Below, in pieces: positions 1,078-27,710 of a stretch of DNA of 27,801 bases. The translations under genes and the position numbers were made by a program. The notes under the pieces were generated by a model. The model was not told the origin of the DNA. It was given only the letters and a program-made list of their open reading frames with translations, and made no database searches. The stretch is from a virus (lineage: Duplodnaviria > Heunggongvirae > Uroviricota > Caudoviricetes): positions 1 to 27,801 of the IMG/VR virus record IMGVR_UViG_2802429218_000003; one strand, written 5' to 3'. Numbering within the stretch: position 1 is the first letter of the stretch; every line of letters starts with the position of its first letter.

Positions 1078-3653
1078 CGTCCACCTCCGGAGAACAGACC
1101 ACCATCGCGCATCTGCCCGGTCACAACATCCATTGCCGCCTTACGGGCTACGTCATAAACAGCTTTCAGTGCCTGTGGCCCTATCTGACCGTTCGTGCCG
1201 TCGTTGTTAATCACCACATGGTTATTCTGCTCAAACGTCCCGGACGCCTGCGAGCGGCTGTCCGCCATGCTGCCAGGTGTACCGACATAACCGCCGGTGG
1301 CATAGCCGCGCATCAGCCGGTAGAGATTTCCCACGCCAATCCGGCTGGTTGCCTCCTTCGTGAAGACAAACTCACCACGGTGAACAATCCCCGCTGGCTC
1401 ATATTTGCCGCCGGTTCCCGTAAATCCCCCGGTCGCAAAATAGAATTTCGCCGCAGCTGCCTGAATGGCTGTACCGCCTGACGCTGATGCGCCGCCACCA
1501 ACAGCCCCGCCAATGGCGCTGCCGATACTCCCGACAATCCCCACCATTGCCTGCTTAAGCAGAATTTCTGTCATCATGGACAGCACGGAACGGGTGAAGC
1601 TGCGCCAGTTCTGTTCACTGCCGGTCAGCATCGCCGCCATATTCTGCGCAATACCATCAAAGGTCTGCGTGGCTGCACTTTTAACCTGCGACATACTGTC
1701 CGTGGCGCTCTCTTCCCACTCACTCCAGCCGGACTTGAGGCCTGCCATCCAGCTCCCGCGAAGCTGGTCTTCAGCCGCCCAGGTCTTTTTCTGCTCTGAC
1801 ATGACGTTATTCAGCGCCAGCGAATTATCGCCATACTGTTCCTTCAGGCGCTGTTCTGTGGCTTCCCGCGCTGCCTGCCGGTCAGTAAGCCCCCGGTTTT
1901 TCGCCTCAATGGCTGCCCGTTTTGCCCGTTGTTGCTGTGCGAACTTATCCGCCTGCTGCGCCAGCGCATTCAGGTGCTCCTGATACGTGACCTTATCGCC
2001 AAGTACAGCCAGCTGGCGTTTGTACTCCAGCGTCTCATCTTTATGCGCCAGCAGGGATTTCTCCTGTGCGGACAGCTGGCGACGTTGTGCCGCCTCCTCC
2101 AGTACAGCGAACTGACTCTCCGCCTTCCACAAATCCCGGCGCTGCTGGCTGATTTTCTCATTCGCTCCGGCATGCTTCTCCAGCATCCGGAGTTCTGCCT
2201 GAAGCGTCAGCAGGGCAGCATGAGCACTGTCTTCCTGGCGATCGCCTGCAGACACTTTCACGCCGGACTGCTTCGGCTTTTTCAGCGTCGCTTCATAATC
2301 CTTTTTCGCTGCCGCCATCAGCGTGTTGTAATCTGCCTGCAGGATTTTCCCGTCTTTCAGTGCCTTATTCAGTTCTTCCTGACGGGCGGTATATTTCTCC
2401 AGCGGCGTCTGCAGGCGTTCGTAAGCCTTCTGCGCCTCTTCGGTATATTTCAGCCGTGATGCCTCAGACTCGGCCCAGTCCTTTGCTGCCATCTCTCTGG
2501 CCTTTTCAAGATCGGCCTGCAACGTGGCGGCTGAAAGCCCAAGTTGCGCATTCGCTCTGTCCTCCCATGCTCCCCGGAGATTGGCAAGAAATGCTGAGGT
2601 TTTACCGCGCCGGTGGCTCCGGCTCTGATACCACTGCCATTTTTTGTCCGCCTCATCAAAAGCCTTTTCTGCTTTCTCCAGCATTCCCTGGGCAGTGTCC
2701 GGGCGACCAATATCCAGCACCGAATCCCACATGGATTTGAATGCCCGTGCTGTCCTGTCTGCCCAGGTCTCCAGCGTGCCCATGTTCTCTTTCAGGCGGC
2801 GGGTCTGGTCATCAAACCCTTTCGTTGCGGCCTCGTTCGCCGCCTGCAATGCCCCGGCTTCATCTCCGGAACGCTGCAACTGAGCAACATACGCAATCTG
2901 CTCCGCCGTCACGTTATGGAACTGACGTGCCATCGCTGTCAGTCCCGACGTCGGGTCTGTGGTCAGCTTCCCGAAGGCTTCAGCGACCTTGTCCACCTCC
3001 ACGCCGGATGCAGAGGAGAAACGCGCCACACTCTGGCTGATCGCCTCAAACTGCTCACCACCACGCACACCGGCATTCACCAGCGCCGTCAGTGACTCGC
3101 TGGTCTGGTTAAACGTCAGCCCTGCCGCCTGCCCGGCTCTGGACAGGACCAGCATGCGATCTGCCGTCAGACCCGACTGATTGCCGGAAAGGACCAGCGT
3201 TTTGTTGAAATCGGACAGGGTTGAGTTGCCCTGATACCAGGCATACGCCAGCGCACCGGTCGCCACCGCCAGCGAGGTGGCCCCCACCATCGGCAGGGTG
3301 ATCGCACCGGCAAGCCCCCTGAACATGGGGATCATCCCGCCGAAGGAGTCCTTCACCTGACCACCCTGTTGCAGCAGGATCAGCCACGGACTTTGCCCGC
3401 CTGCAAGCTGCGTGGCCACGTCGGTGAACTGTGCAGGCAGCATACGCATGGCGGCTTTATACTGCCCGACGGAAATCCCCGCTTTCTGTGCAGCCAGCGC
3501 CTGTCGGCTCAGCGACTGTTCAACGACTGCCGCTGTTTTTTTCGCATCACTTTCCGTACCGGAAAAATGACGCCTGACTCTGGCCATCTGCTCGTCAAAT
3601 CTGGCCGCATCCAGACTTAAATCAACGACCAGATCGCCTACCGGTTCAGCCAT
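1074..3653 (-). CDS. H: Tail tape measure protein H
   Basis: 859-aa ORF with the lambda gpH N-terminus (MAEPVGDLVVDLSLDAARFDEQ), coiled-coil-rich middle and glycine-rich C-terminal region; lambda gpH is 853 aa. Confidence 0.95.
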   Translation of the reverse strand: MAEPVGDLVVDLSLDAARFDEQMARVRRHFSGTESDAKKTAAVVEQSLSRQALAAQKAGISVGQYKAAMRMLPAQFTDVATQLAGGQSPWLILLQQGGQVKDSFGGMIPMFRGLAGAITLPMVGATSLAVATGALAYAWYQGNSTLSDFNKTLVLSGNQSGLTADRMLVLSRAGQAAGLTFNQTSESLTALVNAGVRGGEQFEAISQSVARFSSASGVEVDKVAEAFGKLTTDPTSGLTAMARQFHNVTAEQIAYVAQLQRSGDEAGALQAANEAATKGFDDQTRRLKENMGTLETWADRTARAFKSMWDSVLDIGRPDTAQGMLEKAEKAFDEADKKWQWYQSRSHRRGKTSAFLANLRGAWEDRANAQLGLSAATLQADLEKAREMAAKDWAESEASRLKYTEEAQKAYERLQTPLEKYTARQEELNKALKDGKILQADYNTLMAAAKKDYEATLKKPKQSGVKVSAGDRQEDSAHAALLTLQAELRMLEKHAGANEKISQQRRDLWKAESQFAVLEEAAQRRQLSAQEKSLLAHKDETLEYKRQLAVLGDKVTYQEHLNALAQQADKFAQQQRAKRAAIEAKNRGLTDRQAAREATEQRLKEQYGDNSLALNNVMSEQKKTWAAEDQLRGSWMAGLKSGWSEWEESATDSMSQVKSAATQTFDGIAQNMAAMLTGSEQNWRSFTRSVLSMMTEILLKQAMVGIVGSIGSAIGGAVGGGASASGGTAIQAAAAKFYFATGGFTGTGGKYEPAGIVHRGEFVFTKEATSRIGVGNLYRLMRGYATGGYVGTPGSMADSRSQASGTFEQNNHVVINNDGTNGQIGPQALKAVYDVARKAAMDVVTGQMRDGGLFSGGGR

Positions 3654-4080
3654 ACCGGACTCCTCCTGCGATCCCTTCTGATACTGTCATCAGCATTACG
3701 TCATCCTCCGTCATGTCCGCCACATCCGGGGAAGCGGGGATAACTTCTTTCCCGTCCGGGCCAAAACGAACGCCTCCGGCAAGCCCTGCCGCTTTCTGCA
3801 TCAGCACATCATCTTCAGGCTCTTCGTCAGCCTCGCGCCGGTTCAGCAGACTGAAATCCAGCGGATGCATATCCGGATCGCTGAAAAACAGGCTGAGCAC
3901 GGTGTATGTCAGCCCGGAAAAGTGCATATCCAGCAGAACATCATGAAAATAATGGGTACTGTAAAAGCGGTGCCAGTCGGCATACTCCGTGGATGACATC
4001 CCGGCAAGCATGGCGCGCCAGTCGGGTCGCCCCATCTCACGCGCCAGTTTCAGGGCAAAACTCAGCTCACCGTCGAACAC
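3646..4080 (-). CDS. T: Tail assembly chaperone T frame (expressed as G-T fusion by -1 frameshift)
   Basis: 144-aa ORF in the -1 frame relative to G, overlapping the G 3' end; lambda arrangement with slippery heptamer at 4071-4077. Confidence 0.8.
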   Translation of the reverse strand: MFDGELSFALKLAREMGRPDWRAMLAGMSSTEYADWHRFYSTHYFHDVLLDMHFSGLTYTVLSLFFSDPDMHPLDFSLLNRREADEEPEDDVLMQKAAGLAGGVRFGPDGKEVIPASPDVADMTEDDVMLMTVSEGIAGGVRYG

Positions 4081-4484
4081 TTTCCCGCAGAAACAGGCTC
4101 TGCAGGCCCGGCGTCATCTGCCTGTTCAGGTGCATCATTCACAACAAACTCAGACATACCGGACAGACGCATTACCACATTTTCAGCCTGAGCAATTGCC
4201 TCTGTGGGCCAGGTGGTAAGCACTTCCTGCTCAATTTGTTTAACGGCTTCATTCATGGATGGCATCTTTGTCTTCTGCGGATGGTTATGCCACAGGGACA
4301 TCGCCACCAGAAAAGCACCGGTTCTGACGAGATCTTCCACGCTCACCTGTCGATTGACACTGGAGCCCGCCTGTTCTGCCTGTCGTTTCAGCAGGGCGAG
4401 ATGCTCAATACGCTGCAGGGCTGACAGTTCAGAAAGCGTGACGCTCACACCGTTATATTCAAATGATTCGGTTTTCAGGAACAT
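4062..4484 (-). CDS. G: Tail assembly chaperone G
   Basis: 140-aa ORF, same length as lambda gpG, located between V and T. Confidence 0.9.
   Translation of the reverse strand: MFLKTESFEYNGVSVTLSELSALQRIEHLALLKRQAEQAGSSVNRQVSVEDLVRTGAFLVAMSLWHNHPQKTKMPSMNEAVKQIEQEVLTTWPTEAIAQAENVVMRLSGMSEFVVNDAPEQADDAGPAEPVSAGKCSTVS
4071..4077 (-). other. Programmed -1 ribosomal frameshift slippery heptamer GGGAAAG (G to G-T fusion)
   Basis: Minus-strand sequence GGGAAAG sits near the end of the G reading frame where the T frame opens, as in lambda. Confidence 0.7.
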
Positions 4485-4499
4485 CGCTGACTCTCCGGA

Positions 4500-5240
4500 T
4501 TAACTGTCGGTGACGGTGATTTCTGCAACCGCAGCAAGTTCACCATTACCGGATACAACCGGAATGTTGACCTTGCCTGCAGCAACGCCGTTCACGGTGA
4601 TGGTCATACCGCTGACCGACACGGTGGCTTTTGTTTTATCCGCAGACACCGCACGGAAGCTCTTGTCGGTTGCGCCCTCCGGCTGGAATGCCACGGTCAG
4701 CGTGGTGCTCTGCCCTTTCACCACCGAAGTGCTGGCAGGCGTCACGGTCATGCCGGTTGCCGCTGTTACCGTGCTGCGATCTTCTGCCATCGACGGACGC
4801 CCCACGTTGGTGACTTTCACCGTGCGGGTGATCACTTCCTTCGCCGTCACCGCCTTACCGATACTGCTGACCCAGCCGCGGAACACATCGACCGTGCCGT
4901 TCGGGAAGCGGATTTTATAGGCACGGGTATCCCCTTCATTAAACCACGCCAGCAGCGCCTGCTGCCCCTGCTCTCCGGGCATCCACGCCAGCGTGAAGCT
5001 GGTATCTCCGGCGGATTTCTGACCCTGCCCGGTCGCGGTCCAGTCCGCATCTTCATCATCGAGATAACTGTCGTCACAGGACTCAGCGGTCAGTTCGCCG
5101 GGCGTCAGGTCTTTAACTTTTGCCAGACGCAACCAGTCAACGTCTGAAAGCGGATTCGCATAAGGGTTACCGCTCCCCTTATAAACCCACAGGGTGGTCC
5201 CGGCACCTTTCACCGGCATTGTAGGATTTGGTACAGGCAT
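4500..5240 (-). CDS. V: Major tail tube protein V
   Basis: Track ORF is 256 aa; the internal Met at 5238-5240 gives 246 aa beginning [10 protein letters not shown] (as lambda gpV) and has a GAGGA Shine-Dalgarno upstream. Confidence 0.9.
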
Positions 5241-5247
5241 AGCGTCC

Positions 5248-5643: not shown

Positions 5644-6218
5644 CGCTTTATTACCATTCTCAGTTGATGCTGCAGCGCATAGCCCAGCTCTTTCGGAAGA
5701 CGTTCACGCCGTATCCGCTCAATATTCTGTTTAAACGCCGTGGTCAGCGGCACCGCCATCGGGATTTTCACCACATCAATGGGGTAACGGTTTTTCCCGG
5801 CCACACGCTGCATGACATGCCAGCGGCCATTTTTCAGTTGCTGAATAAACGCGCCGGGAATACGACGGTTTCCCACCACAAGCACGCTGCCGCCACCTTT
5901 CAGGGCTGAACGCTGCCCCTTTTTACGACGCCTGCGGCGGGACAGGACAACCCGCGCGTTACCCAGCCTGATGACGGGCAAATCCCCCCTGTTAACCCTG
6001 ATTCTGGCCTGCGGATTTTTAACCGTGGCCCTTTTCAGCCTGGCCCTTTCCTTTACCAGTTTCCGGCGTACCTTTGTCTCACGGGCAACCTGTGCCGCCG
6101 ACTGCGATATCGCGGATGAAGCAACGCGGTTAATGGCCATTGCGGCGGCACCAGGCACCGCCGTTTTGCTGATACGGCTGAGGTTTTCAACGGCCTGCTC
6201 AAGACCTTTTATGGCCAT
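5640..6218 (-). CDS. Z: Tail completion protein Z
   Basis: 192-aa ORF, same length as lambda gpZ, overlapping the U start. Confidence 0.9.
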   Translation of the reverse strand: MAIKGLEQAVENLSRISKTAVPGAAAMAINRVASSAISQSAAQVARETKVRRKLVKERARLKRATVKNPQARIRVNRGDLPVIRLGNARVVLSRRRRRKKGQRSALKGGGSVLVVGNRRIPGAFIQQLKNGRWHVMQRVAGKNRYPIDVVKIPMAVPLTTAFKQNIERIRRERLPKELGYALQHQLRMVIKR

Positions 6219-6229
6219 ACATCCCCCTT

Positions 6230-6583
6230 TCAGCGGCGACGGTTAACGGCAGGCGGTACGCCCCGCCCAAGCCAGAGATGACAGCTTCCACCATCATCCG
6301 GCGAAACCCGGTCTATCCAGAAGTTTTCCTCACCGATGGTCAGCGTGTCTCCACGCCGCAGCTGCCGCACCTCATCAGTCCGGACAAACAGGGACGGGCT
6401 GGAGCCTTCAACGCGCACACCCTGTCCGGCATAGCTGATATTTTCAGGGTCATCAAAAACACCACGTATCACAGCACCGGACTGCTCACCGGATGTCATG
6501 GTGGCTGACGTTCCCATGTACCCGCGTATCGTTTCATCGGCGCAGGCAATGGCAGCATCGAACAGGTTATCGAAATCAGCCAC
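6230..6583 (-). CDS. FII: Head-tail joining protein FII
   Basis: 117-aa ORF, same length as lambda gpFII; synteny. Confidence 0.9.
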   Translation of the reverse strand: MADFDNLFDAAIACADETIRGYMGTSATMTSGEQSGAVIRGVFDDPENISYAGQGVRVEGSSPSLFVRTDEVRQLRRGDTLTIGEENFWIDRVSPDDGGSCHLWLGRGVPPAVNRRR

Positions 6584-17454: not shown

Positions 17455-17530
17455 TGGTGCTGGTTAACGGACTTGAACCGCTACCCATTCGCTTACAAGG
17501 CGACTGCTCTACCATTGGAGCTAAACCAGC
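17455..17530 (-). tRNA. tRNA-like gene, anticodon UGU (Thr-like)
   Basis: 76-nt minus-strand sequence folds as a cloverleaf: acceptor stem GCTGGTT/AACCAGC (7 bp), D-stem GCTC/GAGC, anticodon loop CTTGTAA, T-arm AGCGG-TTCAAGT-CCGTT, 3' ACCA. Confidence 0.65.
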
Positions 17531-17535
17531 ATATT

Positions 17536-17610
17536 TGGCGGGACAGCGTGGACTCGAACCACGATAAGAAGGTTAACAGCCTTCCGTAATGACCTTTATA
17601 CGACTGACCC
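17536..17610 (-). tRNA. tRNA-like gene, anticodon GUU (Asn-like); possibly degenerate
   Basis: 75-nt minus-strand sequence: T-arm CGTGG-TTCGAGT-CCACG, anticodon stem GAAGG/CCTTC with loop CTGTTAA, 3' GCCA; acceptor stem has one T-T mismatch and the D-stem is weak. Confidence 0.5.
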
Positions 17611-24627: not shown

Positions 24628-25335
24628 ATGGTTCAGAATGAAAAAGTGCGCAAAGAATTCGCCCAGCGGCTAGCGCAAGCCTGTAAAGAAGCTGGTCTTG
24701 ATGAACATGGTAGGGGAATGGCCATAGCCCGTGCCCTTTCTCTTTCGTCCAAAGGCGTTAGCAAATGGTTTAATGCTGAGTCTTTACCGCGTCAGGAAAA
24801 AATGAATGCGCTTGCGAAATTTCTAAACGTTGATGTTGTTTGGCTTCAGCACGGCACTTCGTTAAATGGAGCGAATGATGAAGATACTCTTTCATTTGTT
24901 GGCAAATTTAAAAAAGGGTTAGTGCGCGTGGTTGGTGAGGCAATTCTTGGTGTTGATGGTGCCATCGAGATGACCGAAGAGCGCGATGGGTGGCTCAAAA
25001 TTTATAGCGATGATCCAGATGCCTTTGGCCTTCGTGTGAAAGGAGACAGCATGTGGCCCAGAATAAAATCAGGAGAATATGTACTCATTGAGCCTAACAC
25101 CAAAGTATTCCCGGGTGATGAGGTGTTTGTCAGAACCATCGAAGGACACAACATGATCAAGGTTCTTGGCTATGACAGAGATGGAGAATACCAATTTACA
25201 AGCATCAACCAGGACCACAGGCCAATAACGTTGCCTTATCATCAAGTAGCAAAGGTGGAGTATGTGGCTGGTATTCTGAAGCAATCTCGCCATCTGGATG
25301 ACATTGAGGCAAGGGAATGGCTGAAAAGTTCGTGA
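24628..25335 (+). CDS. cI: CI-type prophage repressor (N-terminal HTH, C-terminal LexA-like S24 peptidase domain)
   Basis: 235-aa ORF divergent from cro; HTH-like N-terminus; C-terminal domain with the GDSM serine motif (VKGDSMWPRI) typical of LexA/CI autocleaving repressors; sequence is not lambda CI. Confidence 0.9.
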   Translation: MVQNEKVRKEFAQRLAQACKEAGLDEHGRGMAIARALSLSSKGVSKWFNAESLPRQEKMNALAKFLNVDVVWLQHGTSLNGANDEDTLSFVGKFKKGLVRVVGEAILGVDGAIEMTEERDGWLKIYSDDPDAFGLRVKGDSMWPRIKSGEYVLIEPNTKVFPGDEVFVRTIEGHNMIKVLGYDRDGEYQFTSINQDHRPITLPYHQVAKVEYVAGILKQSRHLDDIEAREWLKSS

Positions 25336-25440
25336 CTTCATCGTCACATAGCTGATAGTCAGTGGCCTAAAAAGACGTTTGGGTCGTGAATTAGTTTTCA
25401 AACATCTATGTTTGGTGCCTATATCTAGGAAAAATAGGTT

Positions 25441-26178
25441 TTGCAAAATAACTATCTACAGGTTATAGCCTATACTAGGCGCATGAATGATGGTATGACC
25501 AAGCCATTCCTTTGTACTTGCCAAGATGGGCTGGCTTACATAGTTAAAGGAAGGCCAAAACTTCGCCAAAAAGAGCTTGTAGCAGAATTTATTGCCGCCC
25601 ATCTAGCAAAACAGATAGGTCTGCCATGTCCTGATTTTTGCATTGTTGATGTTGATTGTGGGTTAATCGAGTTCATGCCTGACTTGCGTGGTGAGCTTTT
25701 GCCTGGACCTGCATTTGCTACCCGCTTTATTGAAAATGCATCAATCATAAATATTCAACAAGCAAGGAGTGCTGTAACCATTCAGGAACAAAAGAAAATA
25801 TTCTTCTTTGACCGCTGGATAAACAACGCAGACAGATCATTGACTGACATTGGTGGTAATGTAAACATAATTTACGATGCATTTAACAATAGGTATTACC
25901 TGATTGACCATAATCTGGCGTTCGCGCAGGATACAAGATCTCATGAGTATGATGTCCATGTGTATTCGCCGAATGGAAGACCGTGGGTTTTCGACATGCT
26001 CGACGAACCCGAACTGATGGATCTTGCAAATGATGCTATTAGTTCAGTAGAGGAGAAATTTAATCAGCTTCCGGATGAGTGGTTTTCAACCGATGAAGAA
26101 CGAAGGCTAATGCTGAATGAGATAATGAACTGCCTGAACAGAGTGCACGACAGAGAGTTTTGGAGTAACATCAAATGA
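25441..26178 (+). CDS. HipA-like kinase-domain protein (standalone C-terminal-domain type; start codon uncertain)
   Basis: 245-aa track ORF starting at TTG 25441 (AGGA 10-13 nt upstream); alternative ATG starts at 25483 and 25495. Segment ELVAEFIAAHLAKQIGLPCPDFCIV resembles recalled E. coli HipA (EYYCLLLAKELGLNVPDAEII); FFFDRWINNADRS aligns with the HipA catalytic loop VFQWLIGATDGHAKN but has Ser in place of His. Confidence 0.7.
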   Translation: MQNNYLQVIAYTRRMNDGMTKPFLCTCQDGLAYIVKGRPKLRQKELVAEFIAAHLAKQIGLPCPDFCIVDVDCGLIEFMPDLRGELLPGPAFATRFIENASIINIQQARSAVTIQEQKKIFFFDRWINNADRSLTDIGGNVNIIYDAFNNRYYLIDHNLAFAQDTRSHEYDVHVYSPNGRPWVFDMLDEPELMDLANDAISSVEEKFNQLPDEWFSTDEERRLMLNEIMNCLNRVHDREFWSNIK

Positions 26179-26993
26179 CCACACCATGCCTGTATAGCAT
26201 TATTAGATATGCTCCATATGCAGAAACCGAAGAGTTTGCTAATGTCGGTGTGGTTCTTTGTGCCCCGAAATTAGGTCAGTTTTGCTTTAAACTGACCCAA
26301 AGCAACAATGCCAGAGTAAAAAACTTTTTTCAGGATGAAATCATTTTCCCTCACGCGAGGGATGCAATTGCAAGAGAGCTAAAATTTGCTCAAGAGCAAA
26401 GTTATAAATTCAATTCTCCTGAAAAATTAGCAAATTTTTTCAACTACTTAATTGGCAGGAAAGAGTCAATCATTCATTTTAGCTCTGCAAGAGTTGCAAT
26501 GTCTGCTTGTCCACAAGACATGATGCACATACTTTTTAATAAGTTTGTACATCATTCAGAAATAACAAAAGAATCTCGTGAGACCATCCTGACGAGAGAG
26601 CTTAAGCATCGTTTCTCTCATTATAACGAACTCAGGAACGCCTTTAAAAAGGAAATGCTTGGTGGTGAACTAACGCGGTTTTCTGTACCATTTGTTGCCC
26701 GTCACGATGGAGAGATTTTATGTGCTATCAAACCCCTAACATTCACTCAGGACAAGCCTGAGAAAATGTTGGAGCACTGCGACTCTTGGACGGCCAAAAT
26801 TCTGCGCGCCGCCAGTGAAAAAATTTTATCTGTCTCAAATGTGTTATTTACGATAGATGCACCTCGCCAGCCAAGTGAGCTTGAGGTAAAAGCGATGAGT
26901 GAGATTCGTAAGACATTCGATGAGAAAGGTATAAATCACGTAGAGCATCAGGATGAAGCATCAATAGTAAAGTTTGCTAAGCAAGCAATTTAA
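26175..26993 (+). CDS. Hypothetical protein, partner of the HipA-like gene (possibly DUF3037-like)
   Basis: 272-aa ORF whose ATG (26175-26177) overlaps the upstream TGA (ATGA coupling); the N-terminal motif YSIIRYAPYAETEEFANVGVVL is tentatively recalled as characteristic of DUF3037; no catalytic motif recognised. Confidence 0.7.
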   Translation: MTTPCLYSIIRYAPYAETEEFANVGVVLCAPKLGQFCFKLTQSNNARVKNFFQDEIIFPHARDAIARELKFAQEQSYKFNSPEKLANFFNYLIGRKESIIHFSSARVAMSACPQDMMHILFNKFVHHSEITKESRETILTRELKHRFSHYNELRNAFKKEMLGGELTRFSVPFVARHDGEILCAIKPLTFTQDKPEKMLEHCDSWTAKILRAASEKILSVSNVLFTIDAPRQPSELEVKAMSEIRKTFDEKGINHVEHQDEASIVKFAKQAI

Positions 26994-27019
26994 CCCGGCC
27001 ACCGAGCCGGGTTTTCTTT
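26992..27019 (+). terminator. Intrinsic terminator ending the cI-cassette transcript (tImm-like)
   Basis: 7-bp stem ACCCGGC/GCCGGGT with 6-nt loop followed by TTTTCTTTT, immediately after the 26993 stop. Confidence 0.7.
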
Positions 27020-27194
27020 TCCTCTCGATCGCCCACCTAAAAATACATAATCGATTGTATTTGTTGAAAAATAAATAGATACAACTTGCTAAACAGTGCA
27101 ACCCTGATCCCTGCCCTATCACCTTCACCCTCAACATTTACAAAAATAAAATACCTTATATATCAAAACCATATCTCGAGAAAACGAATGAACA

Positions 27195-27260
27195 ATAAAA
27201 TTTCGTACTTATGGTTATTGATTATATCGAACCAATAGTTCATTATTATCACCATCAGCA
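27195..27260 (+). promoter_or_regulatory. Putative oL/pL region
   Basis: Contains TTTCGTACTT-ATGGTT (27201-27216), shared with oR, and candidate -35 TTGATT (27218-27223) and -10 CATTAT (27241-27246) hexamers oriented toward N; exact sites not determined. Confidence 0.35.
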
Positions 27261-27293
27261 GGACGCTGGAAGCCAAACGGAACAGACTGGCAG

Positions 27294-27339
27294 GCTCTTT
27301 AAACAACGTCGAACTCTCGACTACGTGGCTGAAAAGCCA
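27294..27339 (+). promoter_or_regulatory. nutL: nutL: boxA-like GCTCTTTAAACAA (27294-27306) and boxB hairpin TGGCT-GAAA-AGCCA (27326-27339)
   Basis: Read directly upstream of N; boxB has a 5-bp stem and GAAA loop, the same architecture as nutR. Confidence 0.6.
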
Positions 27340-27437
27340 GATCACCCAACCACATGAGCTGTGGGATGCAATGCCGAAGCAACCGTCTCAGGAGGAGCTT
27401 CGAGATTGCATCACCAAAGTTTATTCGGGAGGAATCT

Positions 27438-27710
27438 ATGTCCAGAAAAACAGAATTTAAAGGCACCGCAGCTTCTCGCCGTAGAGCTCGTCGCGCAAAC
27501 CTGCAAAGTCAGGAGGCGATTAGCTCCGACAAGCTACACAGGCCAACCACCTCACGAGTGGTCTTGCAATGCAAGCGCAAACCAGCAATGAGAGCAGAAG
27601 TTATAACTCTGACAACGTTGATCAGAAAATATGAAGGTTCAACTTGTCTTCCAAACGTAGCTCTTTACGCGGCAGGCTACCGGAAATCAAAACAACTGAC
27701 GGCGAGATGA
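27438..27710 (+). CDS. N: N-type transcription antiterminator (arginine-rich motif; P22 gp24-like C-terminus)
   Basis: Track ORF 27354-27710; ATG at 27438 has a GGGAGG Shine-Dalgarno and gives 90 aa; N-terminal ARM TAASRRRARRANLQ; C-terminus LPNVALYAAGYRKSKQLTAR matches the recalled P22 N C-terminus. Confidence 0.8.
   Translation: MSRKTEFKGTAASRRRARRANLQSQEAISSDKLHRPTTSRVVLQCKRKPAMRAEVITLTTLIRKYEGSTCLPNVALYAAGYRKSKQLTAR

Follow-up and report, generated by a model that had tools for sequence, protein, structure and literature searches.

A DUF3037 protein in the rexAB slot of a lambda-like prophage is probably the HipD component of a HipAD anti-phage module

What is the role of a 272-aa protein whose start codon overlaps the stop codon of a HipA-like kinase gene, next to the repressor of a prophage? 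The original prediction for this locus treated the protein as a partner of the kinase and tentatively placed it in the DUF3037 family on the basis of its N-terminal segment. We followed up this prediction across the whole 27,801-nucleotide stretch of DNA (the window), with the features around the gene being as follows.

24628..25335, plus strand: cI-type prophage repressor, 235 aa (Pfam HTH_3 and Peptidase_S24; PGAP "LexA family transcriptional regulator").
25441..26178, plus strand: hipA-like kinase gene, 245 aa from TTG 25441 (Pfam HipA_2; PADLOC PDC-M66A).
26175..26178, plus strand: ATGA start/stop overlap, kinase TGA (26176-26178) and hipD ATG (26175-26177), read directly from the sequence.
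26175..26993, plus strand: hipD-like gene encoding a DUF3037 protein, 272 aa (ORF, Pfam, PADLOC, PHROG, DS-6B alignment and AlphaFold2).
26992..27022, plus strand: intrinsic terminator-like hairpin (26992-27013) and T-run, overlapping the hipD stop codon.
27438..27710, plus strand: N antiterminator gene, the far edge of the cargo slot (PGAP "antitermination protein N" in a 99.9% identical record; arginine-rich N-terminus).

The evidence described below leads us to conclude that the 272-aa protein is probably HipD of a HipAD (DS-6/PDC-M66) anti-phage module, carried as lambda-like prophage cargo in the rexAB slot.

The DUF3037 gene, its kinase partner, and characterized orthologues

The profile HMM search that the original prediction had itself proposed bore out the suggested DUF3037 signature: PF11236 matched residues 7 to 125 of the 272-aa protein (E = 4.5e-19; 69 bits, Pfam cutoff 22.6), and the alignment spanned profile positions 1 to 118 of 118. 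The N-terminal segment cited in that prediction, LYSIIRYAPYAETEEFANVGVVL, corresponds to residues 6 to 28. The protein was also matched by the PADLOC model PDC-M66B (E = 8.9e-15, residues 7 to 258) and by PHROG 5137 (E = 6e-99), with both proteins of the pair falling in PHROG families of unknown function. An NCBIfam search of the pair returned noise only and no meaningful match, and single-sequence and family-profile searches found no solved structure related by sequence to the 272-aa protein or to the kinase. A word-indexed search recovered 82 homologues of the 272-aa protein, and an exhaustive search at E ≤ 1e-3 recovered 547 cluster representatives, nearly all of which are 265 to 290 aa long and align end to end. 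Since these numbers are far beyond chance, sequence conservation indicates that the DUF3037 ORF is clearly a real gene.

The product of the upstream gene has a single Pfam match, to HipA_2 (PF20613; E = 2.6e-75, residues 11 to 244), and is matched by PDC-M66A in PADLOC (E = 9.4e-19). PGAP starts the orthologue at an ATG equivalent to position 25495, which would give a protein of 227 aa. We favor the TTG at 25441 (245 aa) as the better start, given that kinase homologues are 245 to 247 aa long and conserved from about residue 5, that the Pfam alignment supports this start, that the structure model contains a strand at residues 6 to 14, upstream of the PGAP start, and that AGGA lies 10 nt 5' of the TTG. 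The RefSeq PGAP annotation of the kinase is probably shortened by 18 residues (window 25441-25497).

Residues K36, E49, D124, N129, D131, R132, N140, N142, D156, H157, and N158 are invariant in 30 kinase homologues. The structure model of the kinase (pLDDT 88.5, pTM 0.88) matched PI4KII-alpha, Helicobacter pylori CtkA, HipT, and HipA in Foldseek (E = 8e-6 to 1e-3), with HipT (8ezr_B; E = 1e-4) among the best structural matches, while HipA in the PDB gave no match to the kinase by phmmer or family profile at E ≤ 10. Since the matches are at the level of the fold only, with no solved relative at the level of sequence, the kinase is, as modeled, a minimal core of the HipA/PI3-4-kinase-like type, without the N-terminal subdomains of HipA.

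An SD-like GGAG at 26162-26165 lies within the kinase gene, 9 nt 5' of the hipD ATG, and the ATGA overlap between the two genes is consistent with translational coupling. The terminator-like hairpin at the end of hipD has a stem of 8 pairs (6 of them G-C) and a loop of 6, followed by TTCTTTTCCT. In the 25336-25440 interval that separates cI from the kinase gene, no site was flagged as a sigma-70-like promoter, and a weak hairpin lies at 25362-25387. Transcription of the pair in the lysogen probably originates from cI.

Both proteins have experimentally characterized orthologues. The DefensePredictor paper (Science 2026) validated DS-6, which consists of the HipA-family kinase DS-6A and the DUF3037 protein DS-6B; its authors describe DS-6 as an independent discovery of their own and, with reference to Brenes and Laub 2025, now call it HipAD (PMC13092281). 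DS-6 protects E. coli from phage (~3.9 log against Bas1 in the screen), this defense is lost in the DS-6A kinase mutant D139A, and AlphaFold3 predicts contact between the A and B proteins (ipTM 0.76-0.79), with weaker contact to DNA (PMC13092281). When we compared the window proteins with the DS-6A and DS-6B sequences in the supplement of that paper (PMC13092281), the window HipD was 49% identical to DS-6B over 272/272 residues, and the window kinase was 44% identical to DS-6A over residues 8 to 245. D131 of the window kinase aligns with D139 of DS-6A. A HipA-like/DUF3037 pair beside Retron-Sda1 is likewise a stand-alone defense, identified as PADLOC PDC-M66; at this locus, deletion of the kinase abolishes defense and deletion of the DUF3037 gene is toxic (PMC12548924), which argues that the kinase is the toxic component. 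The main text of Payne et al. 2024 makes no mention of HipA or M66. The toxin-antitoxin-like relationship put forward in the original prediction fits the experiments on both sets of orthologues (PMC13092281, PMC12548924). Defense, its requirement for the kinase, and the toxicity seen when HipD is missing are known from orthologues, of which the validated DS-6 is 44 to 49% identical to the window pair, and we attribute them to the window pair by analogy.

The prophage slot and relatives in other genomes

The DNA of the window belongs to a lambda-like prophage, and about 87% of the first 24.9 kb is matched by lambda lysogens (96.4% identity). Its minus strand carries P, O, cII, and cro. The plus-strand order is cI, kinase, DUF3037 gene, terminator-like hairpin, and N, with the kinase gene beginning 105 nt downstream of cI. 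The order in lambda is cI-rexA-rexB-terminator-pL-N, and the kinase/HipD pair occupies the slot where lambda carries rexAB. The GC content of the pair is 0.37 to 0.43, versus 0.50 to 0.56 in the replication genes. In O121 strains, prophages whose cI is near-identical have DUF3024, NYN, and PIN genes between cI and N instead, and only 2 of 5,426 complete E. coli genomes carry the pair. Given that other cargo is found behind the same cI and that the pair is this rare in E. coli, this position in lambda-like prophages, the rexAB slot, is a variable site for swappable defense cargo.

Several other features of these prophages were also observed. In the prophage of E. coli O121 RM8352 (locus L002), the DUF3024 and NYN-domain genes of the cI-N slot span positions 3097-4443, and related strains also have the PIN gene. 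ISCro1, an IS66-family element, interrupts this prophage's gene for the terminase small subunit in the closest complete genome (NZ_CP028192.1; locus L003, 2467-5719). PGAP annotates a frameshifted hypothetical gene just 5' of N (window ~27235-27460) in the 99.9% identical record, and a long ORF (27354..27710) continues in frame into N, the annotated start of which is 27438. Rfam identified two tRNAs only in the window and nothing near the pair; adjacent phage-encoded tRNA-Thr (tgt) and tRNA-Asn (gtt) genes lie on the minus strand at 17455-17610.

A locus scan that took one genome per species yielded 80 loci from other species, distributed among the Gamma-, Beta-, and Alphaproteobacteria, the Verrucomicrobia/Lentisphaerae/Kiritimatiellia, and the Fibrobacterota groups. 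Upstream kinases were called with a profile HMM of the kinase family. A HipA_2 kinase lies immediately upstream on the same strand at 71 of the 80 loci, as expected from the association with HipA-like kinases that the original prediction had put forward, and the 4-nt start/stop overlap that it had pointed out in the window recurs in 46 of these 71 pairs (a further 9 have a 1-nt overlap). Since the remaining 9 of the 80 loci encode DUF3037 without a recognizable kinase, DUF3037 may not act solely as a kinase antitoxin. Full-length DUF3037 genes without a recognizable HipA_2 kinase upstream are present at L044, L046, L053, L055, L057, and L071, where we take the neighbors, from inspection by eye, to be HsdR/HsdM-like type I restriction-modification (R-M) genes, a PIN-like ORF, or a 931-aa MmeI/PglX-like ORF. 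Kinase-less DUF3037 genes may have kinase-independent roles in defense loci, or they may be decayed systems.

Homologues at 86 to 88% identity are common in Salmonella, and one kinase cluster is represented on 731 contigs. A Klebsiella prophage homologue (50% identity) lies directly behind an HTH repressor, divergent from YdaS/YdaT, and shows the same 4-nt overlap. A homologue is encoded in three phage records. One of these, that of Escherichia phage PhiR5_1 (PV340545.1), is annotated by its depositors with cI, "HipA toxin," and "HipD antitoxin," in that order, and its pair again shows a 4-nt overlap. The PhiR5_1 HipD is 100% identical to DS-6B. The pair occupies the same slot as in the window both in PhiR5_1, whose cI is unrelated to the window cI, and in the Klebsiella prophage, also behind an unrelated repressor. 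Across the Enterobacterales loci, we read the best same-strand upstream ORF, by eye, as a cI-type repressor in about 9 to 10 of 14. In Stutzerimonas and Pseudomonas (L029, L030, and L034, ~1790-5243), the pair begins ~25 to 30 nt after what we take by eye to be a type IIG-like methyltransferase/restriction gene of ~1,150 aa, and at several betaproteobacterial loci (L039, L040, and L043), it follows ORFs that are presumably HsdS-like specificity genes, also judged by eye. On this reading, the pair sits inside R-M loci in Stutzerimonas/Pseudomonas and in the Betaproteobacteria.

Anatomy of HipD and alternative readings

In an AlphaFold2 prediction of HipD alone (pLDDT 88), the protein is composed of two domains, of which Pfam covers only the first.

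Residues ~1-125: N-terminal DUF3037 domain.
Residues 126-134: linker.
Residues 135-272: C-terminal domain.

The C-domain is built, in order, of a helix, three strands, a helix, a strand, a helix, a strand, and a helix. Fold matches to the HipD model were weak and mostly to PD-(D/E)xK nucleases (CdiA-CT, PspGI, BstEII, BsoBI, Can2/Card1, SfsA, and the Avs4 nuclease domain); a weak resemblance to STAS anti-sigma antagonists was also seen. At the canonical catalytic D and (D/E) sites of the C-domain, however, 114 diverse members have hydrophobic residues (P172-F173 and A/V/I184-I185-K186): position 173 is F, L, I, or M, position 184 is A, V, I, L, or G (the window protein has A184-I185-K186), and only the Lys is retained. 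Since the catalytic-acid positions are hydrophobic, we rejected an active PD-(D/E)xK nuclease as the identity of the C-domain, which in the model weakly resembles a restriction-endonuclease-like fold minus its catalytic acids. Residues E136, K186, E/D200, H201, and W205 are conserved in this domain. A DUF1829 label was also considered, since the authors of DS-6 assigned DUF1829 to DS-6B with an HHpred probability of 0.78 (PMC13092281). We did not retain this label: PF08862 gave no match here at E ≤ 0.1 and matched 1 of the 114 members (E = 0.0016).

Conservation is slightly higher in the N-domain than in the C-domain (33% versus 26% identity to the reference). Two verrucomicrobial loci (L088 and L090, both at 5998-6408) encode a ~140-aa DUF3037 protein consisting of the N-domain only, directly after a HipA_2-like kinase. 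Given these N-domain-only partners and the higher conservation of the N-domain, we infer that the DUF3037 N-domain is the kinase-associated core and that the more variable C-domain has an accessory role in binding or sensing. A short N-domain-only DUF3037 gene is also found without a kinase (L087, 5968-6405), with neighbors that by eye are presumably Gp37/Gp68-family-like and TcmP-like ORFs. The two-domain structure of HipD, the nuclease-like C-domain without catalytic acids, and the N-domain-only variants in Verrucomicrobia are new in this analysis.

Taken together, the best reading of the pair, by analogy with its orthologues, is a kinase toxin and a HipD antitoxin/sensor that act via abortive infection. 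In a lysogen, the two genes would probably be cotranscribed with cI, and their translation would be coupled. The 245-aa HipA_2 kinase would be the toxic effector, as shown for orthologues, and HipD would bind and neutralize it, as suggested by the toxicity of the orthologous deletion and by the predicted contact, which is an AlphaFold3 result for DS-6 only. A superinfecting phage would relieve this inhibition, whereupon the kinase would phosphorylate an essential host or phage factor and the infection would presumably be aborted. HipA phosphorylates GltX and HipT phosphorylates TrpS, and by analogy the substrate of the window kinase may be a translation factor.

There is a modest chance that HipD is more than a passive antitoxin, being either a sensor-antitoxin or, alternatively, a phosphorylated partner-switch protein. 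Judging from the model, its C-domain could serve as a sensor of nucleic acid or of a phage protein, and occupancy of this domain could free the kinase from the DUF3037 N-domain. STAS anti-sigma antagonists are kinase substrates, and the weak likeness of HipD to these proteins suggests, as the alternative, that HipD may be phosphorylated in a partner-switching manner. The sensor reading would amount to a modular sensor-antitoxin design. If HipD were more than a passive antitoxin, the kinase-less DUF3037 genes in putative type I R-M loci would suggest that DUF3037 serves more widely as an adaptor of defense systems.

We consider it unlikely that the pair is instead an addiction or persistence module with no function in anti-phage defense, which would stabilize the prophage by post-segregational killing or cause HipA-like dormancy of the lysogen. 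Although the toxin-antitoxin-like genetics, the HipA-like fold of the kinase, and the position of the pair in a prophage beside immunity genes would all suit such a module, orthologues cloned outside any prophage protect strongly against phage. Moreover, PADLOC lists the pair as a defense candidate, and in other phyla the pair also lies within what we read as type I R-M and type IIG-like loci, a defense-type context.

Very unlikely, in our view, is a reversed sensor-effector arrangement, in which the kinase senses infection and phosphorylates HipD, and the nuclease-like C-domain of HipD degrades nucleic acid. The predominance of PD-(D/E)xK nucleases among the weak fold matches and the conservation of E136, K186, E/D200, and H201 would favor a nuclease effector, and S8, T18, and S103, which are invariant in the close (Enterobacterales) homologues, could be phospho-acceptors, with only T18 being nearly invariant in the wider family. 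A nuclease effector is nevertheless difficult to reconcile with hydrophobic residues at the catalytic D and (D/E) positions across the 114 members, with Verrucomicrobia partners that lack any C-domain, and with the Retron-Sda1 system, in which deletion of the DUF3037 gene is toxic and it is deletion of the kinase that ends defense (PMC12548924).

That the pair is an inactive remnant, with intact ORFs that have lost their function, is hardly credible despite its rarity among E. coli genomes, given that both ORFs are full length and keep all family-invariant residues, catalytic ones included, that neither the start/stop overlap nor the terminator is disrupted, and that close homologues are common in Salmonella, with a kinase cluster on hundreds of contigs.

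If the pair is a HipAD module, as we favor, the lysogen probably carries a kinase-based abortive-infection module, which bears on superinfection immunity and on host range in phage therapy. The two-domain anatomy of HipD, its nuclease-like but inactivated C-domain, and the naturally occurring variants with the N-domain alone provide experimental handles on this protein.

Comparison with known systems

Beyond the original prediction, our analysis identifies the pair as prophage cargo in the rexAB slot, recognizes the system as one already named and validated, and finds a second, Pfam-unassigned domain in the 272-aa protein. The primary HipAD paper is reportedly that of Brenes and Laub 2025 (Cell Host Microbe). 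The window pair is a new allele of this recently validated system (2025-2026), not a new kind of system, and since it is a known system found in its known slot, its novelty is low.

HipAD (DS-6; PADLOC candidate PDC-M66) resembles the window pair in having the same two Pfam families, the same gene order, the 4-nt overlap, and a place directly after a prophage cI. The likeness extends to full-length homology of both proteins and to conservation of the Asp that was mutated in DS-6A (D131 in the window kinase). The window pair differs from HipAD/DS-6 in being another allele, in which about half of the residues differ and the upstream repressor is unrelated, and its phage specificity may differ as well. 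The Retron-Sda1 pair, which we liken to the window pair by its published description, has the same makeup of kinase and DUF3037 protein, but it adjoins a type III retron reverse transcriptase rather than lying in a prophage immunity region.

Canonical HipBA of E. coli K-12 shares the HipA/PI3-4-kinase-like fold and the toxin-antitoxin logic. The window kinase is, in contrast, 245 aa long, versus about 440 aa for HipA, and is without the HipA N-terminal subdomain. As the original prediction recognized, the order and the partner also depart from hipBA, in that the kinase gene comes first: the antitoxin HipB is a small HTH protein encoded upstream, whereas here the downstream partner is a 272-aa protein that carries DUF3037, and the upstream gene is a cI with an S24 peptidase domain. 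HipBST of E. coli O127 and Legionella is similar in that a shortened kinase, HipT, is neutralized by a separate non-HipB protein, HipS.

The proteins of lambda RexAB are unrelated to those of the window pair, with RexB being a membrane ion channel and RexAB having no kinase. RexAB is expressed in lysogens. Like the window pair, it is a two-gene prophage exclusion system that lies between cI and N, is encoded on the same strand as cI, and ends in a terminator.
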